Assembly: GCA_030619715.1 (NCBI GenBank)
Contig: JAUXAW010000001.1
Span: 3,195-67,194 of the forward strand
Direction of reading: 5' to 3'
DNA from: a candidate division WWE3 bacterium
GTDB lineage: Bacteria; Patescibacteriota; WWE3; JAUXAW01
Length of the DNA: 64,000 nt
Shown: positions 2,544 through 60,430 of the stretch, piece after piece
Layout: each line of letters opens with the position of its first letter
How positions within the stretch are numbered: the stretch's first letter is position 1
Program-made: the position numbers and the translations under genes
Notes under the pieces: generated by a model
Databases searched by the model: none
What the model saw: only the letters and a program-made list of their open reading frames with translations
What the model was told of the DNA's origin: nothing

Positions 2544-2618
2544 CCCCAAAATGGCACCATCTCAATTCAAACCGTCCAGCAGTAGCTGGACCAAAACACT
2601 CCGAAGGAGGTGAGAGAA

Positions 2619-2882: not shown

Positions 2883-2891
2883 CCAGCCAAA

Positions 2892-2939: not shown

Positions 2940-2943
2940 AAAC

Positions 2944-4810: not shown

Positions 4811-4816
4811 AAGAGT

Positions 4817-22589: not shown

Positions 22590-23125
22590 AATTTCTCTTG
22601 AAACTGCGGGGACTTCAATTTCTTCTCAATGATTTCCTCAATATAACCTTTTATATCTCTGCGGTCAACCTTGTCTGACCAGAAACCAAGCAACCTCAAC
22701 AACTCGATCTCGAAATTCCGAGTAGTGGCACTTAGCTCAGAGCGTTTAGCACTTAGCTCGCCAAGAGTTCCGACTAAGAGGTTAAAAACCTGACGGTTGA
22801 CTTGTCTGTCCGGTGTCAGTTGGTCAACCAGTTCAACCAAATAAAACGCTGCCGCGGTTTTCCTAAGGTCTTTTTTAAGTTTTGAAAATGAATTGACCAC
22901 CTGCGCCTCGGTGACAATATCAAGATTTCGTCCCTCGGCCAGAAACAAAACGCAGTGATTAAAGAGCTCAACATTTCCCCCTTTCCTCGAAGTAATCTTC
23001 CGAACCCCCTTAGCAATCGTTTTAATTTTGCCGTAATGCTTCGTATAGATTGTCAGAATCCGGTCCGCCTCACCATAGTTCGTTCGCTTTAAGATTACCC
23101 CTTCAGTTTTATAACTGGACATCAA
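22586..23125 (-). CDS. recO: DNA repair protein RecO (short form).
   Basis: N-terminal OB-fold region [27 protein letters not shown]...AKGVRK. Confidence 0.65.
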
Positions 23126-24953
23126 TTTCGCGGTCGGACTTCAACTCAAACCCCTCAACCTCTTTACCATTAACCTTAATGCTATACATATGCCCGTCGG
23201 TCCCGGGTTGCTTTTGAACCAGCATTTGCAAGGCCTGGCCTTTCTGGACCTTAAAAGGCAACTCGTAGGTCACCGAAACGGAGTTGGAGTTCTCTGGATA
23301 GCAATAGGTGTAAGTTGTGAAAACCGTCTTGCCTAATTCTTCAGAAGAGGTCACCGCCGTCCAAGAGCTGCTGTCAAGAAGCTTGGAGCCTTGAGGAACA
23401 TAAATCCGCATCCAATCATAATAAGTCCCGTTGAGCCAACCGTCGTGGGGTTCGGGATTGTTTAAATTGATTGTCACCGTTTTTACCACCGTTCCATCTT
23501 TTGCCACCTTGATGTCCTGAGTTACCGTTTCCTGGATATAAAGATTGGCCTTGGCTCCGGCAAAGTTACAATCGTTGATGTGAAGATAATCACCGTCAAA
23601 ATCCCTGCTTCGCCCAGCAAAATTATACTTCTCCGCCAACTTTTGCGCCTCTGGCGCATGAAGATACAAAAGAACATGCTTCTCTCCCACCGCCTGCAGT
23701 GCCGTCTCGAAAAGTGGCTTCCAACGATCGCGGGAAGCGTGGAAGGCCTTGTCCATCATGGCGTCCATTAACTCTCCCAAAAGATCCTTGCGACCGACAA
23801 TATACCGCCCCAAAAGATTGACGTAAAGTTCTAACTGATAAACAATATTCTCCGAAGAGAAGGGCTCCTCATAGCCAGAAAGCTCGACTGGGCCCAAAAC
23901 CCCCAAAATATCTTTGACAAAATAGGTGTCAATACCAATAATTCCGTCAATCCGTGGAAAATTGGAAATTTTTCCTAAAAACCACTCAAACTTTTGACAA
24001 CTCTCATAGAAGTCCGGCGAGAGGTTAGAATCGCGAATAAAAGATTCTTCGACTTTAAGATATTGGGCTAAGACCGGCGTGGGAGGAGTTCTTTCGACAA
24101 TTTTTTCGTCCAACTTATACATATCATCGGAGGTCACCGAGATGATTTTCCCGCCCTCGACCGTTATCAGCGCGTAGGCGGTCAAAAAGCCCCCCGTCGG
24201 CCGCAGCTCTTTGTCATTTTGAAAAAGAACTAAATAGGTCTTTGGAGCCAAGTCACCCAAAACCCCCGGCAGAACGGCCAAAAGCTCTTTGATATCCGGC
24301 ATACTCTCCTCTACCGTATTCATCGTTTGTTTGGCCTCAATCAAAAGCGAACGAATTGGTTGACCTCTGAACGATTGAGGATAACGTTTGGGATCAACCG
24401 TCTCCAGCTCTTGGCGAATCGCCGCAAATTCTGTGGCAACTTCATCCAGTCGAGGGGCAATCTCGGGCATCACTTTGACCAGACCCTCAATCTTCTTTTC
24501 CGCATCAAGAAAGGCCTCGGTCTCCTCGGTCTTAAACCCCAAAACATCAGCGAACGGCTCAATCGCCTCGATCAGAACATTCCCCGCGGCAACACCGTGA
24601 TGAGCAGCTCGCAGAATATGCTCAATATCTTTGTAGTAGTTACCAAAGAAGGGGACGCTTTTCGTCCAAGAGAGGGGTTTAACATCTTCCTGAATATAAC
24701 CGATAGAGTCGTCTAGACCCGCAAGATCCCGCTCAATCTTGGTTAAATCTTGCAACAAAACCCCATCTTTCAAAAGCCGTGCTTGCCACCGAACTTTTTT
24801 AACATCGGCATAAACTTTCATCCCCGGCCGAATAATGAATAGAAAACAGAAAACAATGAACAATAAACAGAAAACAGAAAACAGGGCGACTGATCGTTTG
24901 TGTTTATAAAAGAAATTTGAGATTTGAGATTTGAGATTTGAGATTTTTTTCAC
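23109..24953 (-). CDS. DUF4012 domain membrane-anchored protein (paralog A).
   Basis: Signature LVLFQNDKELRPTGGFLTAYALITV. N-terminal TM segment. GTG start immediately followed by an A7 tract and the heptamer repeat. Confidence 0.8.
   Translation of the reverse strand: MKKISNLKSQISNFFYKHKRSVALFSVFCLLFIVFCFLFIIRPGMKVYADVKKVRWQARLLKDGVLLQDLTKIERDLAGLDDSIGYIQEDVKPLSWTKSVPFFGNYYKDIEHILRAAHHGVAAGNVLIEAIEPFADVLGFKTEETEAFLDAEKKIEGLVKVMPEIAPRLDEVATEFAAIRQELETVDPKRYPQSFRGQPIRSLLIEAKQTMNTVEESMPDIKELLAVLPGVLGDLAPKTYLVLFQNDKELRPTGGFLTAYALITVEGGKIISVTSDDMYKLDEKIVERTPPTPVLAQYLKVEESFIRDSNLSPDFYESCQKFEWFLGKISNFPRIDGIIGIDTYFVKDILGVLGPVELSGYEEPFSSENIVYQLELYVNLLGRYIVGRKDLLGELMDAMMDKAFHASRDRWKPLFETALQAVGEKHVLLYLHAPEAQKLAEKYNFAGRSRDFDGDYLHINDCNFAGAKANLYIQETVTQDIKVAKDGTVVKTVTINLNNPEPHDGWLNGTYYDWMRIYVPQGSKLLDSSSWTAVTSSEELGKTVFTTYTYCYPENSNSVSVTYELPFKVQKGQALQMLVQKQPGTDGHMYSIKVNGKEVEGFELKSDREIDVQL
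24916..24950. repeat. Heptanucleotide tandem repeat (TTTGAGA)x4 followed by a T7/A7 homopolymer at the extreme 5' end of the DUF4012 gene.
   Basis: tttgagatttgagatttgagatttgagattttttt. It encodes MKKISNLKSQISN. Confidence 0.9.
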
Positions 24954-25594
24954 GCTGCTCCTCTCGCCTGCAAAACTGCCAACGGTGTTTTGAGGATAAT
25001 GTAAAAATCGTAGAGGATTGAACGGCGGTCGGCATAGGCCGCATCCATTTTAGCCCTCTCGACAAAACTAACCTCCGAGCGACCTCCAACCTGCCAAGGA
25101 CCAGTAATTCCCGGCTTAACTTTTAAGAGCCGCTCAACATACGGACGGCTCTCGGGAAAAACGCGCTGCTGGTCCCGTAACTCAAAAGGAAAATAGGCAC
25201 GCGGCCCGACCAAACTCATCTCTCCCCTCAAAACGTTGATAAACTGCGGAAACTCATCAACACTCACCCTCCGCATAAAATTCCCTCCTCCAATAATGCG
25301 GGGGTCGTTTTCCAATTTGTAGCTATTTCTCTTGTACTCCTCATAAAGTTCGGAATGTTGTAGCAGATAGGCGTGGGCGTTGGGAATCATTGAGCGAAAT
25401 TTGTACATCCGAAATTTTTTACTATCTTTGCCAAGTCTTTCGGGGATATCCGCAAACACCGGACCCGGAGAAATAAGTTTGATATAAACGGCAGTTAGGA
25501 GCATCAGGGGACTAAAGACTACCAAACCAACGATCGCACCCACGATGTCAATCAGGCGTTTGGTCTTGTCATAAAAGTCTGGTGTGTTCTTCAT
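24950..25594 (-). CDS. Polyprenyl-phosphate sugar-1-phosphate transferase (initiating phosphoglycosyltransferase, PglC/WbaP C-terminal-domain type).
   Basis: KFRSM. DEFPQFINVLRGEMSLVGPRA. PGITGPWQV. The start at 25594 has a GGAGGG RBS; the track start is 25696. Confidence 0.85.
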   Translation of the reverse strand: MKNTPDFYDKTKRLIDIVGAIVGLVVFSPLMLLTAVYIKLISPGPVFADIPERLGKDSKKFRMYKFRSMIPNAHAYLLQHSELYEEYKRNSYKLENDPRIIGGGNFMRRVSVDEFPQFINVLRGEMSLVGPRAYFPFELRDQQRVFPESRPYVERLLKVKPGITGPWQVGGRSEVSFVERAKMDAAYADRRSILYDFYIILKTPLAVLQARGAA

Positions 25595-26705
25595 AAAGGC
25601 CCTCCACAAAACCCTCAAGCTCTCTCTGGAAGCGCTTCTTACTAAATCTTGCCGCCTGCGCGTAGCAGTCTTCACTATGATACTGTGCCGTACCAAAGTG
25701 TTCGAGAGCCTTGGTTAGGGCCTCAACCGTTTGTGGATAGAAAAACTCCCCCGTTTTGCCTCCAATCACCGTTTCCAAAGCCCCACCAGCTTTAAAAGCG
25801 ATGACCGGTTTTCCCACCGCCTGTGCTTCCAGAGGCGTGATTCCGAAGTCCTCTTTCTGCGGAAAAATCAAGGCACGGCAGCCTTTATAGTAACTGACCA
25901 CCTCTTCGTCTGTCAACCGATCAAAGAGCTCGACTGTGGGTCCCGCTAATTTCTTCAGCCGTTCAAAATCTGGACCTTCGCCGATGATTTTGAGAGGAAG
26001 TTTGAGCCGGTTGCCGGCTTCGATCGCAATATCGATTTTTTTCCAGGCAGTCAGGCGAGAAACAATTAAATGGTAATCTGAATTAGCGACCGAGGGGTCC
26101 GCGAGCGGAACGTTAGGGTTCGGAGCCGATCGGAACCGATCCAAATCTACGAACGGGTAAATGATGTGCGAATCCCGACCGTAGTATTTTTTGATTCGCG
26201 CCTGCGGCGTCTTGGAGTTGGCGATAAAGTGGTCAACTCGTTGAGCAGCAGCGTAATCCCAAAGGCGGAAATAGGATAAAAAGGGATTTAAGAGGGATTT
26301 AAAGGGATAGGGAAAATTTTCAAAATAAGTTTGGGGTTCCCAAAACATTCGCGGTGGGGTATTCATATAGCAGATATGAAGCGTCTCCGGCCGTGTAATC
26401 ACCCCGTGGGCAAATCTCGTTGAAGATGACAAAACAACATCGTAACCTGTTAGATCAAAACTCTCAAAAGCAAGTGGATAGAGTGGGAAATAATGGCGGT
26501 AAAGTTTTTCCTTAAACGGCAGCTTCTGCATAAACGAAGTTTTGAGATTTGAGATTTGAGATTTCCACTGGGCGGAGGCCATGGATGTAAAAACGTCAGC
26601 TTTGGGGAACGTCTCGATCATTGCCATAAACAACCTCTCCGCTCCCCCATGTTGAATCAAATCATCATGAACCAAAGCGATTTTTATTTCAGTCATCGTC
26701 CCCAT
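25569..26705 (-). CDS. GT4-family glycosyltransferase.
   Basis: EDFGITPLEAQAVGKPVIA (E-x7-E region). Contains the in-frame heptamer repeat at 26538-26566 (KSQISNLK). Confidence 0.8.
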   Translation of the reverse strand: MGTMTEIKIALVHDDLIQHGGAERLFMAMIETFPKADVFTSMASAQWKSQISNLKTSFMQKLPFKEKLYRHYFPLYPLAFESFDLTGYDVVLSSSTRFAHGVITRPETLHICYMNTPPRMFWEPQTYFENFPYPFKSLLNPFLSYFRLWDYAAAQRVDHFIANSKTPQARIKKYYGRDSHIIYPFVDLDRFRSAPNPNVPLADPSVANSDYHLIVSRLTAWKKIDIAIEAGNRLKLPLKIIGEGPDFERLKKLAGPTVELFDRLTDEEVVSYYKGCRALIFPQKEDFGITPLEAQAVGKPVIAFKAGGALETVIGGKTGEFFYPQTVEALTKALEHFGTAQYHSEDCYAQAARFSKKRFQRELEGFVEGLYEEHTRLL

Positions 26706-26733
26706 TTTATCACACCCTATCTGTTTTCTCCCG

Positions 26734-26814
26734 TGATGTAGTGGCAGGCTTGTCTGTTACCTCCCCTCACTAAAGTGATGTAATTCCCGTACGGCCGTAC
26801 GCAATTAACATCAC
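26734..26814. promoter_or_regulatory. Operator-like element: three GTGATGT(A/T)A boxes (two direct, one inverted) around a perfect 14 bp palindrome CGTACGGCCGTACG.
   Basis: gtgatgtag (26734). gtgatgtaatt-CCCGTACGGCCGTACG-caattaacatcac (26775-26814). Confidence 0.45.
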
Positions 26815-26835
26815 TTCCCACCAACCCCCTCATAT

Positions 26836-26864
26836 TTGACAACCATCTTGTAATATGGTATAAT
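26836..26864 (+). promoter_or_regulatory. Perfect consensus promoter TTGACA-17-TATAAT (copy 2).
   Basis: TTGACA at 26836-26841, 17 nt spacer, TATAAT at 26859-26864, then TAAAGG. Confidence 0.6.
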
Positions 26865-26903
26865 TAAAGGGTGGGATGCAGTAGCGAACTTTAGTTCGCG
26901 CAT

Positions 26904-26932
26904 TTGACAAACAGAGCATTCTATGCTATAAT
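26904..26932 (+). promoter_or_regulatory. Perfect consensus promoter TTGACA-17-TATAAT (copy 3, tandem to copy 2).
   Basis: TTGACA at 26904-26909, 17 nt spacer, TATAAT at 26927-26932, then TAAGAAGG. Confidence 0.6.
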
Positions 26933-27162
26933 TAAGAAGGAAAATGGGATAAGACGATGGAGAGAGGCCCAGGAGGGCTTTTGGTAGAAGGACGCGAAAC
27001 GCTCGTTTCTTTCCATCAGAAGCCTTTAAGGTTCTTCGAAAGTCACAAAACAGAAAGTGAGGAAAATTGCTAAAATTGCGGTTAGCAGCCGCCGGAGGCT
27101 CTCAAATCCAAAACCGAGAGCTTCTGTAAAAATCCTGGCGAGATGCCAGGAAAAGGGGCAAA

Positions 27163-27426
27163 ATGTCTACTCCAACCTTGTGGAGGGAGGACTGGGGGGA
27201 GTACTCCTTCCGCCCGCCGTGTGGGCACGCCGGTGGCGGTGCAGGTGACCAAATCCCCCACGACGAGGTGGACGAGACTGGTACATGGACATGTCCTGTG
27301 TGTGGGCTGTCCATCCAGATAACAGGCTCGTCCCCCGTGCCAAGTGACAACTGGAGTGACTCCAATGATGCCCTCGTCACTTGGCCGGATGGAAGGTTAG
27401 AACTATTTGCAGTTCACGATGTCTAA
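27163..27426 (+). CDS. Small GC-rich protein with a zinc-ribbon-like CxH...CPVCG motif, 87 aa.
   Basis: ATG preceded by GGGG. A hairpin CTGGC-gagat-GCCAG lies just upstream. GC about 60%. The only plus-strand gene inside a minus-strand glycosyltransferase run. Confidence 0.45.
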   Translation: MSTPTLWREDWGEYSFRPPCGHAGGGAGDQIPHDEVDETGTWTCPVCGLSIQITGSSPVPSDNWSDSNDALVTWPDGRLELFAVHDV

Positions 27427-27464
27427 CCTCCTTAATAACCGTATTCGCCTCTTAAGGCGAGTTG

Positions 27465-27533
27465 ACACGCTTAACGTACGGTTACTTAACCAGAAATGGT
27501 TGAGGTTCCGAAAGCGTGTCTTCTTTTGTTTGT
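27465..27533 (+). terminator. Large intrinsic terminator (possibly bidirectional).
   Basis: 9 bp stem GACACGCTT/AAGCGTGTC enclosing an inner hairpin, followed by TTCTTTTGTTTG. Confidence 0.55.
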
Positions 27534-27558
27534 AAGAGGAGGATAGCAAGCAAGCTTG

Positions 27559-28599
27559 TCACTTCAAAACCGATCGGAGAACCGACAGAGTTTCGCGGGC
27601 ACACTTTTCCCAAGAAAATTTTTCCGACTGCAAAAGTCCTTTTTGAATTATTCTCTGATAATTTGAATTATCGAAGTGAAGAACTTTTTTAATTCCCTCG
27701 GCGATGCTTTCAACACCGAAAGGGTCAACATAGACAACGGCGTCACCACCAACCTCAGGCAGCGAAGAAGCGTTGGAGGTCACCACCGGAGTTCCGCAGG
27801 CCATCGCTTCCAAAACCGGGAAACCAAAACCCTCGTAATAAGACGGATAAACAAAAACCAGGGCCTTTCGATAAAGTTCGACCAAATCTTTCCGCGCCAC
27901 AAACCCCGGAAACTCCACTGTATCTTCAATACCCAACTTCCTAACTTTCGCTCTAATCATTTTAGTTTCAATTTTATCTTTATTAACAAACTGCCCTCCG
28001 GGCATTATTAATTTCAGCTTTGAGATTTGAGTTGTGGATTTGAGTTTTGAGTTTTGAGTTTTGAGATTGGCGAAAGCCTGTACGAGCCTGAGTATGTTCT
28101 TATTCACCTCCACCCCACCTACAAACAAAATATAATTTCCCCTTTCTTCTTTAGGGACAGGATCCTGCGTTCTAAACTCCTCATCAACTCCCAAATAGAC
28201 CCGATGGACGGCGTCTGCACCAACCCCCACAGATCTGACTACATCCTTCTTCGTATTATCAGAATTGACAAGAATCGCGTCAGCCTTTTTCACGCTCCGC
28301 AACTTCCATCGGTAAAGAAGTCCTTTTAAAAAATTGGCTAGGACCCCTTTTTCGGAAAAACGTTTAGTGGCCAGGGGAACAAGGTCGTGAATCATCAAAA
28401 CTCTAGGGCAAGAAACTCGCGGAAACCCGTCCCAAAAGTTGGGCTGTAGAAAAACATCCACTTTAGAAAAATCCCTCGTCTCAATCCTGACATCCGGATC
28501 AACTTTCGGCAACCACTCAATAATATGTTCGGTATAATTCCCAATCCCGCGGCCTTTATATTGATTTTTCGTTGTCCGATCATCAATGCCAATAATCAT
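27559..28599 (-). CDS. GT4-family glycosyltransferase.
   Basis: EGFGFPVLEAMACGTPVVTSNASSLPEV. Start probably MIIGIDD at 28599 (track start 28644). Contains the heptamer repeat at 28018-28072. Confidence 0.8.
   Translation of the reverse strand: MIIGIDDRTTKNQYKGRGIGNYTEHIIEWLPKVDPDVRIETRDFSKVDVFLQPNFWDGFPRVSCPRVLMIHDLVPLATKRFSEKGVLANFLKGLLYRWKLRSVKKADAILVNSDNTKKDVVRSVGVGADAVHRVYLGVDEEFRTQDPVPKEERGNYILFVGGVEVNKNILRLVQAFANLKTQNSKLKSTTQISKLKLIMPGGQFVNKDKIETKMIRAKVRKLGIEDTVEFPGFVARKDLVELYRKALVFVYPSYYEGFGFPVLEAMACGTPVVTSNASSLPEVGGDAVVYVDPFGVESIAEGIKKVLHFDNSNYQRIIQKGLLQSEKFSWEKCARETLSVLRSVLK
28018..28072. repeat. Imperfect heptanucleotide repeat tract (TTTGAGA/TTTGAGT/TGTGGAT, about 7.5 units) inside the GT4 gene.
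   Basis: tttgagatttgagttgtggatttgagttttgagttttgagttttgagatt. It encodes LKTQNSKLKSTTQISKLK. Confidence 0.85.
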
Positions 28600-29744
28600 A
28601 AAAACATTAAAGCATTTAATACCTTCTCGGCTGTTTTTTTCCAACTAAACTTTTTCGCCTGCTGCAAACCCCCTTCAATCAAATCCTGACGATCACCAGC
28701 CAGAACCTTCTCCATCGCCTCGGTAAGCTCGTCTATACTCTGAGGTTTGACCAAAATTCCCGCATCGCCTACAACCTCCGGAATTGAGGTGGTGTTGGCC
28801 GCAATTACCGGACAGCCGCAGGACATCGCCTCAAGAACCGTCAGACCGAAGCCCTCATGAAAACTGGGATGGACTAGCGCCACCGCCTCGTTCAAAATCG
28901 CCGCCACCTCCCGGTCATCCTCAATCCTTCCGGTTAAGATAACATCATTTTGTAACTTAAGTTTCTTAAGAAGATTAAGAAGATTCCGAGAGTCTTGATC
29001 CCTCCCCTTCGCATCCACCGACCCAATTAAAACCAACGTGGGATGAGAACCGATCCGCCTTTGGCGGATGAGATTAGCAAACGCCCGAAGGAGCGTTTGC
29101 AAATTCTTGTGCGGTCGAAAATTTCCCAGATAAACAAAAAATGGCTTTGAGATTCCATACTTGTCAAGGACCTGCCTGCCGGCAGGCAGGGCTTCGCTCT
29201 TGACATCACCGTCGTTGATGGGTTCGTAGGCCTCACTCGCTGCGCCGCGAATATTAATAATCCTACCCTCCTCCACCCCCAAAAATTCTTTTATGTCACT
29301 TTTCACAAACTCAGAAATGGTAAAAATTACCGCCGCTCTTTTGGCCACCAACTTCGAAACAAACACATCGTACAATCTCGCCTTCGGCGAGGCAATTTCC
29401 GGGTACCGGCGGTAAAGAAGATCGTAGATTGTCAGCGCATATTTTTCCCGCAAAAAAAGAGAAGCCCCCCAGGGAGTTGTCCAAAATAAATCTAGTTTGA
29501 GTTTTGAGATTTCCAACGGAAGCGAAAAATGCTGGTGAAAAGAATTCGGCTTTGATCTGACCACAGCGAACTCAAACTGCGGTTGATTCTCTGACCAAGC
29601 TTCCATTTTATTTCCAGGATTCCCAACGAGAACAAATGTATGACCTGACCGCAACCTTGCTAGAGCCTTAATCAGATTCTCCCGATAATTCCCGATCCCG
29701 GTCGGAAAATCCTGAATCATCCGCACATCAATTCCAATTTTCAT
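28596..29744 (-). CDS. GT4-family glycosyltransferase.
   Basis: HEGFGLTVLEAMSCGCPVIAANTTSIPEVVGDAG. Confidence 0.8.
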   Translation of the reverse strand: MKIGIDVRMIQDFPTGIGNYRENLIKALARLRSGHTFVLVGNPGNKMEAWSENQPQFEFAVVRSKPNSFHQHFSLPLEISKLKLDLFWTTPWGASLFLREKYALTIYDLLYRRYPEIASPKARLYDVFVSKLVAKRAAVIFTISEFVKSDIKEFLGVEEGRIINIRGAASEAYEPINDGDVKSEALPAGRQVLDKYGISKPFFVYLGNFRPHKNLQTLLRAFANLIRQRRIGSHPTLVLIGSVDAKGRDQDSRNLLNLLKKLKLQNDVILTGRIEDDREVAAILNEAVALVHPSFHEGFGLTVLEAMSCGCPVIAANTTSIPEVVGDAGILVKPQSIDELTEAMEKVLAGDRQDLIEGGLQQAKKFSWKKTAEKVLNALMFL

Positions 29745-30646
29745 AACCGAGACAACCGCACCTTCTCCATCAACTTAATGCCCCCAAGAACCAAACAATC
29801 AATCACCGCCGGATACTTTTGCCGGTAATGTTTGTTGTAAAAAATCCGCATCGCATCGGTTGAAGCCTCTAGGACCCGACGCTTAGATTCCTTGGTTGCT
29901 GTTGTGACCTTCTGAGAAGACTTTTTTATTCCCGATGAGGCACCTTTGTGATGGATAATTTTTGCATCGGGATAAAACATCACCTTCCATCCCTTCTCTT
30001 TGAAGCGGTAGCACCAATCCAAATCCTCGCCGTAAAAAAAGAAGTCTTCGTCCCAAATCCCAACCTCCTTCATCGCCTTGCGTCGCACCATCATAAAGGC
30101 CCCACAACAGGCATCAATTTCGTGAGTTTTTCCCAGATCTTTCCAGGTCTGATGATACTGACCAAACAATTTTGACCTAGGGAACAGTTTTTCCAGTTTG
30201 GTAAAGAAACAAAAAGAAGCCCAAGGAGTCGGAAACCCACGATGGCAATCGGGATCCATCCCCCCACTGGTCAGCTCAACAAAACAGGTCGAAACCCCAA
30301 CTTCAGGATTACCATCCATAAACTGGATTATGGTTGGTAGAGTTTTCTCGGGAACAGCCGTGTCCGGATTGAGAAACAAAAGATACCGTCCCGAAGATTC
30401 TTTGATGGCAAGGTTGTTCGCCTTAGCAAATCCCAAGTTTTTCTTGTTAACAATGAGTTTGACCTGGGGGAAAATCCGCTTGACCATCCCCGTCGAGCCG
30501 TCCCACGATGCATTATCCACCACAAAAATCTCCATTCGCTTATTCGCGTTCATTGGCTCCTCATTCGCTAACATTAGCGTGTTTAAACATTCGCGCAATA
30601 AATCATTGGTATTAAAATTAACAATAATTACCGAAAGGTCTGTCAT
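29741..30646 (-). CDS. GT2-family glycosyltransferase.
   Basis: LSVIIVNFNTNDLL...VVDNASWDGS. DxD region. Confidence 0.8.
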   Translation of the reverse strand: MTDLSVIIVNFNTNDLLRECLNTLMLANEEPMNANKRMEIFVVDNASWDGSTGMVKRIFPQVKLIVNKKNLGFAKANNLAIKESSGRYLLFLNPDTAVPEKTLPTIIQFMDGNPEVGVSTCFVELTSGGMDPDCHRGFPTPWASFCFFTKLEKLFPRSKLFGQYHQTWKDLGKTHEIDACCGAFMMVRRKAMKEVGIWDEDFFFYGEDLDWCYRFKEKGWKVMFYPDAKIIHHKGASSGIKKSSQKVTTATKESKRRVLEASTDAMRIFYNKHYRQKYPAVIDCLVLGGIKLMEKVRLSRL

Positions 30647-33242: not shown

Positions 33243-33245
33243 AGG

Positions 33246-35086: not shown

Positions 35087-35088
35087 CT

Positions 35089-36009: not shown

Positions 36010-36027
36010 TTGGTGAAATTAAAAGTG

Positions 36028-44590: not shown

Positions 44591-44662
44591 ATAAGTTAAT
44601 GATACCGCAAAACCTGCTCCACCCCAACCAGCAAAAACATAAAGGCCCAGGAAGAAAGTCTC

Positions 44663-49817: not shown

Positions 49818-49821
<4 letters not shown>
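48679..49821 (-). CDS. GT4-like glycosyltransferase.
   Basis: C-terminal GT-B Rossmann domain (FLGKIKSDEELEKEIAKSCLAIAPY...GVPVLLTN). Confidence 0.65.
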
Positions 49822-51585
<1,764 letters not shown>

Positions 51586-51598
51586 TTAATAATCGCGG

Positions 51599-52267: not shown

Positions 52268-52292
52268 GTAGAATAAGAGTTAGTGGGGTAAG

Positions 52293-53030
52293 ATGAAGTA
52301 TTCACTGTTTATCGGCCGGTGGCAACCTTTTCACAAGGGCCACAAAATGCTGATCAATGAAGTTCTCAAGGAGAAAAAGCCTGCTCTCATCGCTATCAGA
52401 GATACTGAAATATCGGAGGAAAATCCGTACACTATCGAGGAACGTAGGAAGATGATCAAAGAAGAGTACGGAGATAGCGTAAAGATAATCACCATCCCGG
52501 ATATAGGGGAGATCTGTTACGGTCGAAGGGTTGGATACAAGATAAGAAGAATTCGCTTGGATAACCAGACAGAGGAGATATCAGGAGCCAAGATAAGAGA
52601 TTCACAAAAAAGGGTTATTTGGCTTACAGGCAATATGGGTGCAGGGAAAACATCTCTTGCTTATCTTCTTAAAGACAGGTTGAATGCGGTTGTTTTGGAT
52701 GGCGATGAGATGCGAGCATCAATCTCGCTGGGAGCAGGTTTTAGCAAAAAGGACAGGAACGAACATAATTTAAGAGTAGCACGGCTGGCAAAAATTCTTC
52801 ACGCCCAGGGGCACAATGTTGTTGTGGCGGTCATCGCACCATTTAGGGAAACGAGAAAAAAGATTAATGATATCTGTGATCCCTATTGGATTTATGTGTG
52901 TGGCGGAGCAACGGGGAAAGATAAGCCCTACGAACCGCCGGAGAATCCCGATGTGGTTATTGATCCTTTGTCTGAAAGTTTAAGCGAAAGCCTGGAGAAA
53001 ATCATTGAGGAGGTGGGGAAAATTACATAG
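52293..53030 (+). CDS. Compact NMNAT/cytidylyltransferase-like nucleotidyltransferase domain fused to adenylylsulfate (APS) kinase. Candidate minimal PAPS synthase.
   Basis: N-domain has FIGRWQPFHKGH (H-x-G-H) and EISGAKIRDS (ISxTxIR-like). C-domain has VIWLTGNMGAGKTSLAYLL (P-loop), LDGDEMR, FSKKDRNEHNLRVARLAKIL and VVAVIAPFRETR, the APS kinase (CysC) motifs. Confidence 0.7.
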   Translation: MKYSLFIGRWQPFHKGHKMLINEVLKEKKPALIAIRDTEISEENPYTIEERRKMIKEEYGDSVKIITIPDIGEICYGRRVGYKIRRIRLDNQTEEISGAKIRDSQKRVIWLTGNMGAGKTSLAYLLKDRLNAVVLDGDEMRASISLGAGFSKKDRNEHNLRVARLAKILHAQGHNVVVAVIAPFRETRKKINDICDPYWIYVCGGATGKDKPYEPPENPDVVIDPLSESLSESLEKIIEEVGKIT

Positions 53031-53190: not shown

Positions 53191-53261
53191 AAGTCTCATA
53201 GTAGATATGGTAGTATGTTTGCGCCGGAACCTTAACAACTCAGTTAGACAGGGGGAGACAG

Positions 53262-53996
53262 ATGAGAATAGTCCGCTCAACGGGGTGTTTTAAGAGCCTC
53301 CTGGCGGCCTACCTCGAAATTCCATACTTCCCGTGGAAGAATATGGAAGTGGAATTGTGGCCGCTACGAGGCACAGGCATCCAAAGAATAATCGACGGTG
53401 GGTGCCGGATCGTTAGCATCCACATGCCCTTCGGTGAGTCACTGTGGCGAGGAGGACTTCCTCACATATGGCGCCTCATACGAAGGGATTTCCAGAGGAG
53501 GTCTGTAAAATCCGCCATGCACCTGGCTCTCACAGCGGTCGTCTTAGCTACGGATTTCTGGCATCGCATCTGGAAACCGTACTGGCCGGAACTCGACATC
53601 GAAACCATCGAGCAGGACTTAGCGATGTTGCGACCGAACGCGCTCCTTTTTCACGGTGATCAGCTGTGGGCCGTTTCAGAGGCGACGGAGAGAATCCTGG
53701 CGCTTGCGAGGAGTATGGGCACTGGGATTCACGTCGAGCATTGCTCCATCGGGCCCTCTGAAGAACCTCTCACTATTCACGACACGATCAACATGTGTCG
53801 AAGGGATGGTTGGAAATTGGCCCCAGACCTACACCACAGCCCTGAATTCGAGAGATATTTGCTTGTTCTAAAAGAAGAGGGGCTACTTGGAGAAATCCAG
53901 TGTCGTGGTTTTAAAGAAGCGCGCAGGCTGATGACAGCTTACCCGGGCCTAGAAGGGGCCCCACTGGTTATCGAGCCAAAAGACCTGACCACCTAG
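53262..53996 (+). CDS. Hypothetical protein, GC-rich (about 58%).
   Basis: RBS GGGGGAG before the ATG. 244 aa, no recognisable motif. Compositionally distinct from its neighbours. Confidence 0.5.
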   Translation: MRIVRSTGCFKSLLAAYLEIPYFPWKNMEVELWPLRGTGIQRIIDGGCRIVSIHMPFGESLWRGGLPHIWRLIRRDFQRRSVKSAMHLALTAVVLATDFWHRIWKPYWPELDIETIEQDLAMLRPNALLFHGDQLWAVSEATERILALARSMGTGIHVEHCSIGPSEEPLTIHDTINMCRRDGWKLAPDLHHSPEFERYLLVLKEEGLLGEIQCRGFKEARRLMTAYPGLEGAPLVIEPKDLTT

Positions 53997-54007
53997 GATG
54001 GGGGCAC

Positions 54008-54766
54008 TCAAAATCGCAGTTCCGGCTTGAGTGCCCTCAAATTCATCATATTATTCTTAACCTCAACCACAATTTCTTCCAAAATCTCCTCCCAAGAATC
54101 TTCAAGGAGGCGGGCACAATCTTCAAAAACCCTTTTTGCTTTCTCCACATTCACGTTGTCCCCCTGCGGGAGACCTGCGGCCATATTCGCCCAAATTTCG
54201 ACCAGACCCTGAATCGAAAGAAACCTTTCGGGAGTATAGGATCTCAAGAGAAACAAAATATCCTGCGAAACATCCGCAATCTCCTTGTCGAAGCACTCGG
54301 CCAAAAGAGACGCTGCTTCGGAAACATCAATCTGGGAAATCTTTTTTGCTAAATCTTCAACAAAATTTCGCCGGTGCCGAAGAAGTTGGACATCAACTCC
54401 CCACCAAAGAAAGTTGTGAAATCGAGCCCGCGAAGCTATCTCCAAGGAAATCTCCGAGGCCTCAGCGATTCGTTTCCCATACTCTTCTCTCTTACTTTCA
54501 AACCGCTCCGCAATGCTCCGACTAAACCCATCTGCCCCAAACTCGGCGCTGTGGCAAAGCATACCCAAAGCCAAATCTCGCCTCCCCGGAGAGTATTTAT
54601 CCAAGAAATCCAGAAGTTTCTTTCCGCCCTCATGGATCTCCTCAAACTCAAACACAGAGCCGGGAACGAAGGGAACAATATCCGGATAATAGGAGCCCAA
54701 AACCAAATCCCCCGTTAACCTTCCGGCAACCCTTTTAGCGACGTAGGGATGACCGATGACATTCAT
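54008..54766 (-). CDS. Hypothetical protein. The internal Met at 54766 (MNVIGHPYVAKR...) is the likely start.
   Basis: About 250 aa. No recognisable domain. Confidence 0.45.
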   Translation of the reverse strand: MNVIGHPYVAKRVAGRLTGDLVLGSYYPDIVPFVPGSVFEFEEIHEGGKKLLDFLDKYSPGRRDLALGMLCHSAEFGADGFSRSIAERFESKREEYGKRIAEASEISLEIASRARFHNFLWWGVDVQLLRHRRNFVEDLAKKISQIDVSEAASLLAECFDKEIADVSQDILFLLRSYTPERFLSIQGLVEIWANMAAGLPQGDNVNVEKAKRVFEDCARLLEDSWEEILEEIVVEVKNNMMNLRALKPELRF

Positions 54767-54810
54767 TGGAAGTATTTTAACACAGACAGAAGAGGCGATT
54801 CTCGTGTAAA

Positions 54811-56376
54811 ATGGTAACAATGAAAGAGTGGTTCAGACAAAATTGGAAGGCCCTCGCTTTTCTCGCCTTTCTGGTTTTTGTGGCCTACATCAACTCTCTA
54901 AATAACGCCTTTGTGGCTGACGATATTCCCGCGATCCTTAACAAAGCAGATATTACCGAAATAAGCTACGTCTTCGCCACCCCTCTTGTCTTGGCAAGGA
55001 CTTTCCTGAACTTCATCATCGCTAACATCTTCGGCCGCTCACCACCCGCTTTCCGCGCCGTCAACATCCTTTTTCATCTCGGCAATGTTTGGCTGCTTTA
55101 TTTCCTCCTTCACATCTTAGCCAACCGCAAAACCGCTCTCTTCGCCGCCGCCATCCTGGCCACCCATCCCCTTATGACCGAGTCAGTTACCTGGGTTGCC
55201 GGTGGTCTATACGCACAGTACAGCTTCTTCCTTCTTCTGGCGTTAGCGCTATATGTTCTAAACGATGTGAACGAAAACAAAAAAGTTTATTGGTCCGCAC
55301 TCGGGAGCTTCGCCGTCGGTCTTCTCACCTCCGAAAAGGCAATGGCTTTCCCTCTTATCCTTTTGGCGTTGGAATTCGCCTACCGGGGTTTGCGAAAAAA
55401 TTGGAGGCGCTTGATTCCCTTCTTTGCTCTTGGGGGGATCTGGGCACTAATATTTATCGGAAAAATTGGCGAGAGAGCCGCTAACCTCCAAACGATGTAT
55501 TATCAAGCCCCCCAAGCAACGGAGTCCCTAGCTCAGATCCCAATCGCCATTACCTCCTACTTAAAATTAGTCTTCTGGCCGAAGGGGCTTACTCTCTACC
55601 ACTCGGAGATGAGCTTCTCTGCCGTTGAGTTCTACCTGCGGCTGGCCGCCCTAATTATTTTCTTGGGACTGATGGCTTACGCATACAGGAAAAGCAAACC
55701 GACATTTTTTTGGTTATCTTTCTTCATCATCGCTCTTTCACCAACACTGGTCCCGTTTGGTCTTTCTTGGATTGTCGCCGAGCGCTACGTCTACCTAGGC
55801 ACAATTGGAATTCTTGTGGTCGTAGCGATGGGAATCCAAAAGATTGGAGAAAAACTCGGCAACCCCAATATTTCTTACGCAATTATGGTTCCAGTCGTTT
55901 TAGCGCTGACGGCAAGAACGATTGCTAGAAACACCGACTGGAAAAACCAAGACACGCTTTGGCTAGCGGCGGCGAAGACATCGCCTTCAAGCCCGCAGAA
56001 CCATAATAATCTCGGAGATCTGTACGGCCGACGGGGGGATTTGGAAAGGTCGGCAGAGGAGTTTAAAAAAGCGATCGAGCTCAAACCGGGCTACGCCGAC
56101 GCTCACCATAACCTGGCCATTGTTTATCAGCGAATGGGAAGAGTTGACGAAGCGATTGTAAACTATCAAAAGGCAGCCGAAATTAACCCCCTGCTCTGGC
56201 AACCCTGCCAAAATTTGGCCGCTATTTACTTTGAGCAAGAAGAGTTCGAGCTAGCAAAAGAATATATGGAAAAAGCGGTTGAAGCTAACCCCGAAAACGC
56301 CAACCTCCGCCGCAGCCTAGAAATCATTTATCAAGAACTCGTCCAAAAAGAGAATTCAAAACGCGATCAAGAGTAG
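54811..56376 (+). CDS. TMTC/DUF1736-like GT-C membrane glycosyltransferase with C-terminal TPR repeats.
   Basis: N-terminal polytopic region with YINSLNNAFVADDIPAI (N-x-F-x-x-DD motif). Three or four C-terminal TPRs (NLGDLYGRRGDLERSAEEFKKAIELKP...). Confidence 0.6.
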   Translation: MVTMKEWFRQNWKALAFLAFLVFVAYINSLNNAFVADDIPAILNKADITEISYVFATPLVLARTFLNFIIANIFGRSPPAFRAVNILFHLGNVWLLYFLLHILANRKTALFAAAILATHPLMTESVTWVAGGLYAQYSFFLLLALALYVLNDVNENKKVYWSALGSFAVGLLTSEKAMAFPLILLALEFAYRGLRKNWRRLIPFFALGGIWALIFIGKIGERAANLQTMYYQAPQATESLAQIPIAITSYLKLVFWPKGLTLYHSEMSFSAVEFYLRLAALIIFLGLMAYAYRKSKPTFFWLSFFIIALSPTLVPFGLSWIVAERYVYLGTIGILVVVAMGIQKIGEKLGNPNISYAIMVPVVLALTARTIARNTDWKNQDTLWLAAAKTSPSSPQNHNNLGDLYGRRGDLERSAEEFKKAIELKPGYADAHHNLAIVYQRMGRVDEAIVNYQKAAEINPLLWQPCQNLAAIYFEQEEFELAKEYMEKAVEANPENANLRRSLEIIYQELVQKENSKRDQE

Positions 56377-57127
56377 TCGCTGGATAGTTTGCCAAGAGAC
56401 GCTTTCTCTCAACCTCTGGCAAATCGTAAAACTTCAAAATTTTCAGACGATAAAAAATAGAAAGGGTGTCAAACAGAGTCTCAAAAAGGGAACGGGGGCT
56501 GACCGCGGTGCTAAGCACAAGCCGTAGCCGGACCGGCGCCTCTCTAATCTTAAAGTTGTAGTGGTGCGCCAGGGCCAAAACCTCGATATCAAAGGCGTAA
56601 CGCTTAACTAGAAGCAAAGGCATAATCTTTTCCAAAACTTTACGGCGAAAAACTTTTAAGCCCACTTGAGTATCGGTCACCCCCAAATCAAAGAGAAGTT
56701 TGACGGTAACTTGGGCCCCAAAACTGACCAACCGACGGTGCCAGGGATAAACTACCTGTGACCTAGGATGCACCTTCGAACCAATAACCAGATCCGCCCC
56801 ACTCTCTTCCAAAATCCTTAAGAAATAAACTATTTGTGAGGGAGGAAAATCAAGACCGGCGTCAAAAAAGGCAATCACATCCCCGCGGCTCTTCTCAAAA
56901 CCAAACTTGAGGGCGTGGCCTTTGCCGCGATTTGGTTCGTAGTAAAAAACTTGCACTCGATCGCCCCGCAAGGATTTGGCAACTTCGTAAGTTCCATCGG
57001 AACTGCCGTCGTCAACCACCACCAGCTCGTAATCCAGCTGCTGTTGGTCTAAAAAATCAGCCAGAGACCGAATCGTCTCTTTAATCCTTTTCTCTTCGTT
57101 GTAAGCGGGAATAATTACCGAAAGCAT
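56324..57127 (-). CDS. GT2 polyprenyl-phosphate sugar synthase (DPM1/GtrB-like).
   Basis: LSVIIPAYNEEKRIKETI...LVVVDDGSSDGT. 267 aa. Confidence 0.75.
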   Translation of the reverse strand: MLSVIIPAYNEEKRIKETIRSLADFLDQQQLDYELVVVDDGSSDGTYEVAKSLRGDRVQVFYYEPNRGKGHALKFGFEKSRGDVIAFFDAGLDFPPSQIVYFLRILEESGADLVIGSKVHPRSQVVYPWHRRLVSFGAQVTVKLLFDLGVTDTQVGLKVFRRKVLEKIMPLLLVKRYAFDIEVLALAHHYNFKIREAPVRLRLVLSTAVSPRSLFETLFDTLSIFYRLKILKFYDLPEVERKRLLANYPATTLDRVLNSLFGRVLDK

Positions 57128-58322
57128 GATCGAACCCGAGGGTAGCCAACACCCCCGTCATCACTACAATGTTACCATAAATCACCTGGTCCAAGGTTTC
57201 GTGAAAAAAGCACAAAAGTGCAATTTGGAGCACGGAGAAAATTGCTAAAAAAATAGCCGGGCGAAAATTGCCAATCGAGAGAAAAAAACGAGAGATAAGA
57301 TCGACAACGGCGTACAGTCCCATAAACACGGCAAAAACCCCTAAGTAAGGCACCGCGGCAAGGTATTGAGAACCAAACAGTAACGTCACCAAAAACCGAG
57401 GCAGAAGAAAATAAACCAAAACTCCAATCAGCGCTCCGGGAACGACCAGCAACAAGGATTTATGAAGAACCGCAAAAGGATTCTCTCCCCTCTCCTGCTT
57501 TTCTGCCGCCATTGGGAAAGCCACCATGACCACCGAACTTAGGCCAAAAAAGATTATCCTCCCTATCATCACCACCGAGCCGTAAATCCCCGCCTCCTCG
57601 GGGGAGAAAAAGTGTTTGACCAAAATGACATCGGTGTTATAAAAAGCAGCTAGTGCCAAAAGGGTAACCGTCGTCGGTAGAGCGTATTTCAACAAGTCCG
57701 TTTTTACAAACGAGCTTCCTGTAAAAGAGGTCCGCAAGTTCTTCCTCAAAAGCAGCAGAGCAACAACAATAGTCAGACCGCTAGAAATGATCAATCCCCA
57801 AGTAACCCCCCAAAGCCCAAAACCCAAAGCCGCCAAACCCACCCCGAACAAAAATTTCAAAAAGGGGCCCAAAAAAGACATTAGGGAAAAGGCCTTAAAC
57901 CTTAGCAGCCCTCGCAAAAAACCCAATGGGGACGAAGCCGTGAGAGAAAGGGCAACGAAGCCAAAAAACAGAACCGGAAGGAGGGGGTTGGCTATTTTTA
58001 AAAATTCGGCTAGCTGATTCCGGAAAACGAAAGCCAGACCGAGAAAAGTTAAACCCAAAAAGGATGTGGCTTTACTTGTCCAAACAAGAGCCTCCGTCAC
58101 CGCTTCAAAATCACCCTGCGCTTTGTACTTAGAAGCAAATTTAGTAGCGGTTGTCCTCAAAACACCTCCGGGGACACCGGCGATGTAGAGAAGAGAAAAG
58201 AGGGAGACAAGCGTTCCGTATTCCGCCGGCGAAAGCAACCGCCCCATCGCCAAGTGAAAGAAGTAATTAAGGAAAGCTCCCCCCAAAGAGCCCACGAGGA
58301 CGAGTATAATGGATTTTTTCAT
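57081..58322 (-). CDS. Polytopic membrane protein, flippase-like (Wzx/MATE-like polysaccharide biosynthesis family).
   Basis: About 12 TM segments. N-terminus LVLVGSLGGAFLNYFFHLAMGRLLSPAEYG. Confidence 0.5.
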   Translation of the reverse strand: MKKSIILVLVGSLGGAFLNYFFHLAMGRLLSPAEYGTLVSLFSLLYIAGVPGGVLRTTATKFASKYKAQGDFEAVTEALVWTSKATSFLGLTFLGLAFVFRNQLAEFLKIANPLLPVLFFGFVALSLTASSPLGFLRGLLRFKAFSLMSFLGPFLKFLFGVGLAALGFGLWGVTWGLIISSGLTIVVALLLLRKNLRTSFTGSSFVKTDLLKYALPTTVTLLALAAFYNTDVILVKHFFSPEEAGIYGSVVMIGRIIFFGLSSVVMVAFPMAAEKQERGENPFAVLHKSLLLVVPGALIGVLVYFLLPRFLVTLLFGSQYLAAVPYLGVFAVFMGLYAVVDLISRFFLSIGNFRPAIFLAIFSVLQIALLCFFHETLDQVIYGNIVVMTGVLATLGFDHAFGNYSRLQRREKD

Positions 58323-58525
58323 GAACGAAAGATGAAAACGATCCCGGCCATAATTAACAAAACGCCGCCAAACCGTACCAAAGACACCTGCTCACCAACC
58401 TCCAACCTTGTTAACCCCAAACTTCATCAGGAACTGGCCCACAACCCCCAAAATAATATTAATACCGAGCAGAAGATAAGGCGAAATCATTATTTGCCTA
58501 AGATTCTACCAACACCGAGCCCTCG

Positions 58526-60430
58526 ATGTCAAAACCAACGCTTGAATCCCGCTATCAACTTGTATACTATTGGGGTATGGTCCGGGCGAAGACTTCACGC
58601 TTAAAGAGGCTTTCAAAGCGCAAGAAGGTCCTGCTTACTGCTCTGGTGGTGTTGGTTTTGCTGGCCATAGGGGGCTACTTCTTGGTAGGCAGACCGGCGC
58701 AGGCCCTGTACCAGCAGGCCAAGTTAGCCAAACCCCATCTGGCCAATCTTAAAACCGGCTTGATAACACAAAATCTACCTCAAATTCGAGCGGAAGTGGC
58801 TGAACTCGATCAAATCCGAGCGAAGTCGGCGGAAATTTACCAACAGTTTGGCTGGCTCGAAGTAATTCCGGGGGTCGGTAACTATTATCGGGACGGCCAG
58901 CACGTTTTCAGGGCGGGAGAGGCGGGAATCGAAGCGGCGCAGATTATGGTCACGGCCCTAGAACCTTTTGAAGATTTTGAAGATATTGAAAAATTAACCC
59001 AGCTGGTTGTCATCTCTCCCCAAATTATCCCTCAACTAGAGGAGGCCTTACAGAAAATCGCGGTTGTCCGCGCGGAAATCACCCAAATCAACCCCCAGCG
59101 CTACCCTACCGAGATTAAGGGGTTTAAAATCCGCTCTAACTTAGAAAGCGCAATCGCCGCGCTCGACAGCGCCGAGGGGCTCCTCACCGACGCGGGACCC
59201 CTTCTGCGCGCTCTGCCTCAGGCGCTAGGAGCGGAAGAGCCCCAAAATTATTTAATTCTCTTCCAAAACGATAAAGAGCTCCGGCCCGGTGGCGGTTTCA
59301 TCACCGCCTACGCCCTGGCCCAATTCAACCAAGGGGTATTTTCTGTTTTGCAGTCAGACGATATTTATAATCTGGACCAGAACCGCGTGCGCCTGCCGGC
59401 CCCAGATCCGATTACGCGCTTTTTGAAAGTGCCGGGGTTTTACATGCGCGACACCAACTTTTCGCCCGACTTCAAAAAGAGCATGGAGGATTTTCTCATT
59501 TACTACGACGCCTGCGGTGCGCCGCCGGTAGCCGGAATTATCGCCATTGATACCCAATTCGTGGAAAGCTTTTTGGAACTCACGGGACCCATCAGCGTCC
59601 CCGAATACCAGCAAGATTTTTCCGGCTGGCCTAACCTGCCTCAATCCTGCCGCACGGGAGGCACGGACTTCACCACCGAAAATGTGGTTTGCCGACTGGA
59701 GCTCTACGCCGAGAAAATTCTCCATGGAAGCAGTCAACGCAAGGCCTTGATTGGTGATTTAATGGGGCATCTGGTCGATTGGCTGCTGACCGCGCCCCCG
59801 AACATCTGGCCGCCGATACTCAAAAATGTGGTCGAACAGGCGCAGACCAAACATCTATTAGTTTATTTTGAAAATGAAACTCTACAGAAATTGGCCGAAG
59901 ACTACAATTTGGCCGGACGGCTGCGAGAGGATTTCAAAACCGATTTTCTGCACGTTAACGACGCTAATTTAGCCGGCGCCAAATCCGATCTCTACATGGA
60001 TCGCAAATACCGCCTGGAGGTCAAAACAACCGGCGACGGGCAGGTGATCAACAAATTGACCCTCACTTACGCTAACACCGGTCTTTATGATGGCTGGCTC
60101 AACACAACCAATCGCGATTATCTAAGGATCTATGTCCCTCAGGGCTCTATGCTCATCGATTCCGACGGCGGTTCGTACGAGACAACAACTTTCGAGGACT
60201 TGGGCAAAACCGTTTTTGATAATTTTCTGCAGACCCCTCCACTGCAGACAATTCAGTTTATGGTCGAGTACCAATTGCCGCCGGAGGTGGAGAGAAAATC
60301 CTCAAAAGAATATGAGTTGCTAATCCAAAAACAGCCAGGGAAGGGGGCCGAAGAATGGACGGTGGTCGTAAACGGAGAAGAGCAAACGATAAATCTGGAT
60401 AGAGACGAAAAACTAAGATTTGAACTCTAA
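58526..60430 (+). CDS. DUF4012 domain protein (paralog B).
   Basis: YLILFQNDKELRPGGGFITAYALAQF. Collinear similarity to 23109-24953 (IDTYFV/IDTQFV, LYLHAPEAQKLAEKYNFAGR/LLVYFENETLQKLAEDYNLAGR). Confidence 0.8.
   Translation: MSKPTLESRYQLVYYWGMVRAKTSRLKRLSKRKKVLLTALVVLVLLAIGGYFLVGRPAQALYQQAKLAKPHLANLKTGLITQNLPQIRAEVAELDQIRAKSAEIYQQFGWLEVIPGVGNYYRDGQHVFRAGEAGIEAAQIMVTALEPFEDFEDIEKLTQLVVISPQIIPQLEEALQKIAVVRAEITQINPQRYPTEIKGFKIRSNLESAIAALDSAEGLLTDAGPLLRALPQALGAEEPQNYLILFQNDKELRPGGGFITAYALAQFNQGVFSVLQSDDIYNLDQNRVRLPAPDPITRFLKVPGFYMRDTNFSPDFKKSMEDFLIYYDACGAPPVAGIIAIDTQFVESFLELTGPISVPEYQQDFSGWPNLPQSCRTGGTDFTTENVVCRLELYAEKILHGSSQRKALIGDLMGHLVDWLLTAPPNIWPPILKNVVEQAQTKHLLVYFENETLQKLAEDYNLAGRLREDFKTDFLHVNDANLAGAKSDLYMDRKYRLEVKTTGDGQVINKLTLTYANTGLYDGWLNTTNRDYLRIYVPQGSMLIDSDGGSYETTTFEDLGKTVFDNFLQTPPLQTIQFMVEYQLPPEVERKSSKEYELLIQKQPGKGAEEWTVVVNGEEQTINLDRDEKLRFEL

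Follow-up and report, generated by a model that had tools for sequence, protein, structure and literature searches.

DUF4012 paralogs at the two ends of a WWE3 surface-glycan locus: a predicted LCP-like fold and a possible role beside the priming transferase

What do the proteins of an anonymous envelope family do for a surface glycan, and why should one glycan locus carry a member of that family at each end? The question is raised by a 64,000-nt stretch of the genome of a candidate division WWE3 bacterium (hereafter the window), in which ~35 kb of glycan genes lie between two DUF4012 genes, copy A (23109..24953, minus strand) and copy B (58526..60430, plus strand). The window is the part of the genome that is visible, which bears on any absence reported below. 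Taken as a whole, the best explanation appears to be that DUF4012 is a ligase-like enzyme with a LytR-CpsA-Psr (LCP) fold working together with the priming transferase of glycan assembly, a reading to which we give a probability of roughly 0.5. As markers of the borders the two copies differ in kind, and they are best read as one core gene and one acquired paralog.

Copy A encodes 614 amino acids (aa) and closes the glycan operon, overlapping the stop of a phosphoglycosyltransferase (PGT) gene at its start and the start of the RecO gene at its end. Copy B, 634 aa as listed, is divergent from a pair of genes encoding a second Wzx-like flippase (Wzx2) and a family 2 glycosyltransferase (GT2). 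A sequence-only reading of the window had taken the two for paralogs on the strength of a shared motif and collinear blocks. The open reading frames (ORFs) are indeed present at these positions, and BLASTP aligns them over 599 residues (36% identity, 55% positives, E 5e-129), collinearly from just past the transmembrane (TM) helix to the C-terminus, so that the relation reaches well past the LFQNDKELRPxGGF motif. Both proteins pass the 28-bit cut-off of Pfam PF13196 (A, 81 bits; B, 79.3 bits), a model that covers just aa ~237-373 of the proteins and is matched by all 48 aligned homologues. The family comprises 13,980 cluster representatives (50% identity clusters) at E<=1e-3, and 3608 of 8000 scored candidates match at E<=1e-5. 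Homologues of A and B are overwhelmingly Patescibacteria, including Woykebacteria, Levybacteria, WWE3, CPR1, and CPR3, but full-length collinear homology extends outside the candidate phyla radiation (CPR) to annotated DUF4012 proteins of Rhodococcus, Streptomyces, and Lachnospira. An exact-protein look-up returned no record identical to A. With respect to B, translation probably starts at M18 (58577) rather than at 58526, since orthologues begin at the equivalent of M18, 51 nt inside the listed ATG, and a promoter-like site for the divergent Wzx2 gene (minus strand, 58532-58503; TTGACA-18-TAGAAT with TG, 11/12) overlaps the listed start.

In each protein, Lys/Arg residues come before a single N-terminal hydrophobic window (A, aa 18-49; B, aa 32-59). 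One N-terminal hydrophobic helix after a basic stretch suggests an N-in orientation with the bulk of A and B extracytoplasmic, in keeping with their earlier description as envelope proteins. Models generated with AlphaFold2 without templates (A: predicted local distance difference test [pLDDT] 88.8, predicted template modeling score [pTM] 0.82; B: pLDDT 86.8, pTM 0.79) have the same four parts in both proteins: a TM helix, ~190 residues of long helices, an alpha/beta core, and a C-terminal beta-sandwich. In the A model, the TM helix spans aa ~20-42, the helical bundle continues to ~231, the LCP-like core occupies aa ~238-470 (nt 23544-24242), and the beta-sandwich occupies aa 474-612; the corresponding core in the B model lies at aa ~240-481 (nt 59243-59968). 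The best Foldseek matches of A were 3owq, 3nxh, and Cps2A entries, with E values of 2e-4 to 6e-3. These top chains are LCP members at the sequence level, as judged with a profile derived from eight genuine LCPs encoded in plasmid records. The beta-sandwich gave weaker matches to M1-aminopeptidase N-domains, a cellulase carbohydrate-binding domain, and oligosaccharyltransferase (OST) subunit 1. The DUF4012 core, as predicted, has the LCP alpha-beta-alpha fold, and the N-terminal anchor with an extracytoplasmic domain that characterizes LCP proteins is likewise found, as a hydrophobic window and a modeled TM helix running into the ectodomain. The sequence-only reading had favored a structural or export role; its connection of the family to the glycan is kept, whereas the structure prediction points instead to a ligase-like LCP fold.

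Conservation can be followed across CPR, Actinobacteria, and Firmicutes. Residues Y240, Q245, E249, R251, G254, G255, G268, G337, K468, and N499 are invariant, and N310, D336, D342, R388, K389, and N463 are nearly so. The residues with the strongest conservation are polar or charged and sit in the alpha/beta core rather than in the helices, and the pattern across the three groups appears enzyme-like. E249-x-R251 closes strand 1 and resembles, by eye, the D-x-R of LCPs.

The genomic position of the family provides the second line of evidence. Window proteins were placed by tblastn in a sample of 80 Patescibacteria loci, one per GTDB species (single loci are given below by their L numbers). A near-universal order on one strand emerged: GT2, GT4 (family 4 glycosyltransferase), PGT, DUF4012, RecO, GlyRS, and MraZ-MraW. 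The PGT gene lies immediately upstream of DUF4012 in 73 of 75 loci, which bears out the proposed tie between DUF4012 and glycan genes, and RecO follows immediately downstream in 73 of 74. Copy A has this context. On its left flank are the conserved genes for RecO (22586-23125, minus) and a class-II GlyRS-like synthetase (21222-22589, minus), beyond which come mraZ, mraW, a gene for a penicillin-binding protein (PBP), and murA. Directly upstream of A is a small priming PGT gene (24950..25696, minus) coding for the Bac_transf catalytic domain only; its true start is probably near 25600, as the proteins of relatives are 214-218 aa long. It is preceded by a GT4 gene (25569..26705, minus), which belongs to the conserved GT4-PGT-DUF4012-RecO-GlyRS unit and is collinear with L108. 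Outside CPR, polysaccharide genes were found near three of four plasmid loci of Rhodococcus, Streptomyces, and Lachnospira, and weakly near the fourth. In R. qingshengii the order is ABC transporter, sugar transferase, DUF4012. In the exopolysaccharide (EPS) cluster of Bifidobacterium longum, the order is cpsD, DUF4012, wzz, and the DUF4012 gene BL105A_0406 of strain 105-A adjoins the priming glycosyltransferase (PMC5412050).

These features match what is known of LCP enzymes. The sugar-phosphate-phosphate-lipid bond that the priming transferase makes is the one that LCPs cleave, and they link the polymer to peptidoglycan or to protein (PMC7831098). Between their N-terminal TM segment and their extracellular core there may be an accessory domain, and a further domain may follow at the C-terminus; LCPs occur as several paralogs, often near their own glycopolymer cluster (PMC7831098). 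The ligase-like proposal is based on this correspondence: DUF4012 has the matching topology and predicted fold, occurs in paralogs, and nearly always adjoins PGT. Like LCPs (Cps2A, TagT/U/V, S. aureus LcpA-C, and A. oris LcpA; PF03816), DUF4012 proteins carry extra domains around the core, exist as several paralogs per genome in or next to glycopolymer loci, and pair logically with PGT. There are also differences. The DUF4012 motifs are Y..FQNxxExRxxGG, RDSNxSPDF, and NxxAGxKxxxY, compared with GxDxR...RSD...PRD...DKIN in LCPs; the N-terminal domain is a long helical bundle and not the accessory domain of Cps2A; and the C-terminal beta-sandwich is absent from classical LCPs. Moreover, the activity of DUF4012 is a predicted one, whereas LCPs act as phosphotransferases/pyrophosphatases on polyprenyl-pyrophosphate-linked glycopolymers. 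We propose that the chemistry may be shared in kind.

The long helices can also be read differently. DUF4012 might be a non-catalytic assembly or chain-length factor whose helical bundle, similar to the periplasmic domain of Wzz and other polysaccharide co-polymerases (PCPs), organizes Wzy or export, while the LCP-like core serves as a lipid- or glycan-binding module only. Both models indeed place ~190 residues of long helices after the TM helix, none of the locus proteins scanned has a Wzz/PCP domain, and such a role would agree with the structural or export function suggested earlier. PCPs, however, have two TM helices and DUF4012 has one, and neither A nor B nor the 48 DUF4012 members gave a Wzz match in Pfam, so the features of that family are not seen here. 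In B. longum, DUF4012 stands beside wzz itself, and in a Streptomyces plasmid locus it occurs together with a bacterial tyrosine kinase (BY-kinase). In addition, the conserved polar and charged residues sit in the core and not in the helices, and it is PGT, rather than Wzy or Wzx, with which DUF4012 is strictly paired. We therefore consider a chain-length factor unlikely.

Returning to the ligase-like reading, from paralogy, synteny, topology, and fold we infer the catalysis, the substrate, the acceptor, and a division of labor between A and B as follows. The adjacent PGT would start a polyprenyl-pyrophosphate-linked glycan, which Wzx flips and Wzy polymerizes. At the last, extracytoplasmic step, DUF4012 would take the finished lipid-linked glycan and move it to a wall acceptor, freeing the lipid carrier, as LCP ligases do. 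Copy A would complete the pathway of the large Wzx/Wzy glycan, and copy B would serve the second module next to it (Wzx2, GT2, and a GT-C/TPR protein) or another acceptor. Two paralogs for two glycans or two acceptors would resemble the multiple LCP paralogs in Firmicutes. A and B are probably the missing glycan-attachment step, judging from the models.

Several observations weigh against this assignment. Searching 48 DUF4012 members against Pfam returned DUF4012 only, and no PF03816, even at E<=10. A DUF4012 profile found no LCP among PDB sequences, and hhalign of DUF4012 with the eight LCPs gave a probability of 3.8% at full length, where the match is confined to the TM region, and of 0.4% when the cores were compared. 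Outside CPR, D247 of the FQNDKELR motif is not kept, and any DUF4012 counterparts of the Cps2A residues that bind pyrophosphate and Mg2+ (the R267/R362/R374 triad and D371), or of the hydrophobic lipid tunnel, would be putative ones. A canonical LCP gene occurs ~6 kb from DUF4012 in L085, i.e., within 10 kb, and Actinobacteria and Firmicutes have both families. Both copies were not found together on one contig of any relative, these contigs being too short; the only hint is that one metagenome yielded both L108, with an A ortholog, and L097, with a B ortholog. Finally, the division of labor between A and B is drawn solely from gene neighborhood.

As no sequence method detects the LCP link, DUF4012 is not filed under PF03816: five sequence approaches found no connection, and membership of that family by sequence is not claimed. 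The LCP hidden Markov model (HMM) matched none of the ORFs of the 64-kb window. We also considered DUF4012 as a stand-in for a missing LCP. The canonical gene in L085 (17500-18500, minus; hmmsearch E 1e-37) is located between RecO and GlyRS, and this coexistence indicates that DUF4012 is not simply an LCP replacement; the stand-in idea is weakened accordingly, all the more so because just 64 kb of the genome is visible.

The same observations bear on the possibility that DUF4012 is another enzyme on an LCP-like scaffold and no wall ligase. It might recycle the carrier as a polyprenyl-pyrophosphate phosphatase, or it might be a hydrolase by which the polymer is released or trimmed. LCP enzymes themselves show pyrophosphatase activity (PMC6381275), and both the missing LCP signature and the canonical LCP in L085 would be compatible with a different reaction. 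Pairing with the priming enzyme and topology fit ligation equally, and the data do not separate these activities; we regard the alternative as decidedly unlikely. An extended form of the ligase-like reading, to which we give somewhat less than an even chance, is that DUF4012 constitutes an unrecognized, sequence-divergent branch of LCP-fold ligases that acts as a housekeeping enzyme fixing the surface glycan to the wall in Microgenomates-type CPR, and that a second, foreign copy was recruited in this genome for a second glycan module.

Why, then, are there two copies? Copy A has relatives with the same gene order at 55-79% identity (L001, L002, L007, L107, and L108). L108 is collinear with window positions 29434-21271 at 71-79% nucleotide identity. 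The neighbors behave like A itself: in L001, identity to the window is 68% for A and 71/69/72% for GlyRS/RecO/PGT, in L002 it is 56% for A and 66% for GlyRS, and in L007 58% and 63%, respectively. Identity of GlyRS, RecO, and PGT thus tracks identity to A, not to B, the behavior of a vertical ortholog. By these comparisons A is the lineage's own core DUF4012, vertically inherited, and the best explanation for the present arrangement is that the large sulfated-glycan locus grew upstream of the A anchor string.

Copy B has a different history. Its orthologues (81-87% identity) were found only in L006, L097, and L098, on short contigs of 2.8-4.4 kb, and the next-nearest homologues (44-53%) are all PGT-DUF4012-RecO-GlyRS core copies of other lineages. 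Among 215 full-length homologues, 165 are nearer A and 50 nearer B, and neither A nor B has the other as its nearest relative. Together with the identities of the neighbors, this placement indicates that B is an additional copy and not a recent duplicate of A; it would have come from another CPR lineage as a xenolog or have arisen long ago as a paralog. A recent tandem or inverted duplication is ruled out, each copy having many closer relatives elsewhere. Base composition is no proof of foreign origin, since the G+C content (GC) and the GC of third codon positions (GC3) of both A (0.46 and 0.52) and B (0.51 and 0.59) are within the spread of core genes. PGTs of the B-like lineages (L004, L087, and L088) are long (464-467 aa) with a membrane domain, and those of the window and the A-type relatives are ~215 aa and contain just the catalytic domain; the DUF4012 subtype may go together with the form of PGT.

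The right edge of the locus illustrates how the surroundings of B have changed. In the window, B is followed by a Schlafen AlbA_2/HATPase_c_4 gene (60735-62120, minus), a gene for a 164-aa protein (62128-62622, minus), and an AAA_14/DUF4143 ATPase gene (62709-63965). In L006 and L098, the homologue of the 164-aa gene comes directly after the B orthologue without the Schlafen gene, which is hence a recent insertion in the window. On the other side, nucleotide homology ends ~40 nt before B, and its divergent left neighbor is Wzx2 in the window and a GalE-like NAD-epimerase in L006 and L097. A conserved right flank with varying glycan genes beside B is the usual behavior of surface-polysaccharide loci. 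A tRNA scan found none, and there is thus no tRNA-linked island signature.

Bracketing by two DUF4012 genes is not a general design: a second copy within 10 kb of DUF4012 was found in none of the 80 loci (0/80), and the arrangement is hence specific to this lineage. The idea of a recombination-prone boundary survives in part, as the content of the interval beside B is variable, but A and B are no recombination pair. At the DNA level, their longest exact match is 11 nt, and the sole blastn match is 69 nt at 77% around the motif. Without a longer exact match they cannot recombine with each other, which also rules out a role as inverted repeats.

Could the bracketing be coincidence, with B a stray, horizontally acquired paralog that is redundant or unrelated to this glycan? 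The absence of a second copy from the 80 related loci would fit, as would the confinement of B-type orthologues (81-87%) to three short contigs and the accessory genes near B, i.e., the Schlafen insertion and the AAA_14/DUF4143 gene. Yet B is an intact gene modeled no less confidently than A, the orthologues found are intact ORFs that are full-length or near it, and B divergently adjoins a glycan gene both in the window (Wzx2) and in L006 and L097 (the GalE-like epimerase). We consider coincidence quite improbable.

Scans of every ORF between A and B with Pfam and NCBIfam agree with the gene inventory given in the sequence-only reading. There are ~17 glycosyltransferases (9 GT4, 1 Glyco_trans_1_2, 6 GT2, and 1 GT-C/PMT_2-TPR) and two Wzx-like proteins. 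A Bac_transf PGT, 17 glycosyltransferases, two Polysacc_synt proteins, and a Wzy-like protein in one cluster are what a Wzx/Wzy-dependent locus contains; the locus is an ordinary cluster of this type, yet unusually large and sulfated for a CPR genome. Upstream of the GT4 gene of the conserved unit, the minus-strand array is split by 853 bp without a credible ORF (26706..27558), which separate the GT4-PGT-A-RecO unit from the remaining array and probably carry the promoter of the GT4-PGT-DUF4012 unit. This stretch has no Rfam match, in line with a scan of the whole window that gave nothing above threshold, and no similarity in ~95 related loci; at the same spot, L108 has two opposite-strand ORFs of 170 and 211 aa. 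Within it, the minus-strand segment 27080-27400 has a minimum free energy (MFE) of -132.6 kcal/mol (z -3.9; 0/100 shuffles as good).

The array continues on the minus strand with a block of GT4/GT2 glycosyltransferase genes (27559..42041), assigned by Pfam/NCBIfam. The block includes the Wzy_C/IctB-like membrane protein of 493 aa (31761-33242, minus), a weak match (E 4e-7), and an unannotated protein of 589 aa (36028-37797, minus) with a weak, partial match to DUF3863 and no NCBIfam match. GC3 is somewhat lower at 34-42 kb (0.40-0.45), where GC is slightly lower too. Wzx-type flippase 1 (Polysacc_synt/MatE-like; 42025..43479, minus) is followed by genes for precursors and decoration (43454..52267, minus), which encode a WecB 2-epimerase, two sulfotransferases (one a GDSL-like fusion), Glyco_trans_1_2, an FkbM methyltransferase, a GT4, a GT2, an fcl-like epimerase/reductase, and a class-I methyltransferase. 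On the plus strand, a nucleotidyltransferase-like/APS-kinase fusion (52293..53030) would supply 3′-phosphoadenosine-5′-phosphosulfate (PAPS) for the sulfotransferases. Its short nucleotidyltransferase-like N-terminus gives HMM matches of the nicotinamide mononucleotide (NMN)-adenylyltransferase type. The sulfation module consists of this gene (52293-53030) and of 44663-47007, which holds the two sulfotransferases including the GDSL-like fusion; no ATP sulfurylase was seen among the window ORFs scanned.

The second, small module beside B (53262..58322, mixed strands) has five genes: two unannotated ones (53262-53996, plus; 54008-54820, minus), and those for the GT-C (PMT_2)+TPR protein (54811-56376, plus), GT2 (56324-57127, minus), and Wzx2 (57081-58322, minus).

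Elsewhere in the window, a PD-(D/E)XK nuclease family gene (7202-7642; PDDEXK_3, E 1e-32) lies in the division cluster between ftsA (7645-8880) and ftsZ (6095-7186). A nucleotide salvage/modification cluster at 1027-5734 encodes a thymidine kinase, a fusion of a helix-turn-helix (HTH) domain with a deoxynucleoside kinase, a weakly C5-cytosine methylase-like ORF, and a DUF1599 "nucleotide modification associated" protein.

O-antigen and capsule loci are typically variable between conserved flanks, as exemplified by the pneumococcal cps locus between dexB and aliA. The present locus resembles these in that it has conserved edges, A with RecO on the left and B with the 164-aa gene on the right, that the content beside B differs among close relatives, and that GC is slightly lower in its middle. 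It differs from them in that the flanks are themselves glycan-pathway genes and mutual paralogs. The DUF4012 proteins of Gram-positive EPS and capsular polysaccharide (CPS) clusters, such as BL105A_0406, belong to the same family and likewise occur beside the priming enzyme within a polysaccharide cluster. Compared with those loci, the window has a pair of divergent copies, one at either end of a single locus, and the CPR gene is fixed in a PGT-DUF4012-RecO-GlyRS-dcw string.

DUF4012 is enriched in CPR, Gram-positives, Chloroflexi, and Cyanobacteria, and no function has been assigned to it (PMC6744442). In the searchable literature, no fold or mechanism is proposed for the family, and the published annotation is just "auxiliary protein for envelope protein". 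What is new is the predicted LCP-fold assignment together with the fixed PGT-DUF4012-RecO synteny; the bracketing, being lineage-specific, matters less. CPR bacteria are uncultivated, and the building of their envelopes is largely unknown. In this context, the predicted LCP fold and the almost invariable position right after PGT provide, for a family with no assigned function, a hypothesis that can be tested, namely that it carries out the terminal step in the assembly of surface glycans. The hypothesis extends to genetically tractable groups outside CPR (Bifidobacterium, Rhodococcus, and Streptomyces). As LCP enzymes are under discussion as targets for antibacterials, a second, sequence-unrelated family on the LCP fold would be relevant to such targeting. 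If the proposal is true, an enzyme for this terminal step would be hard-wired genetically between the priming transferase and the recO-glyS-dcw genes in Microgenomates-type CPR.

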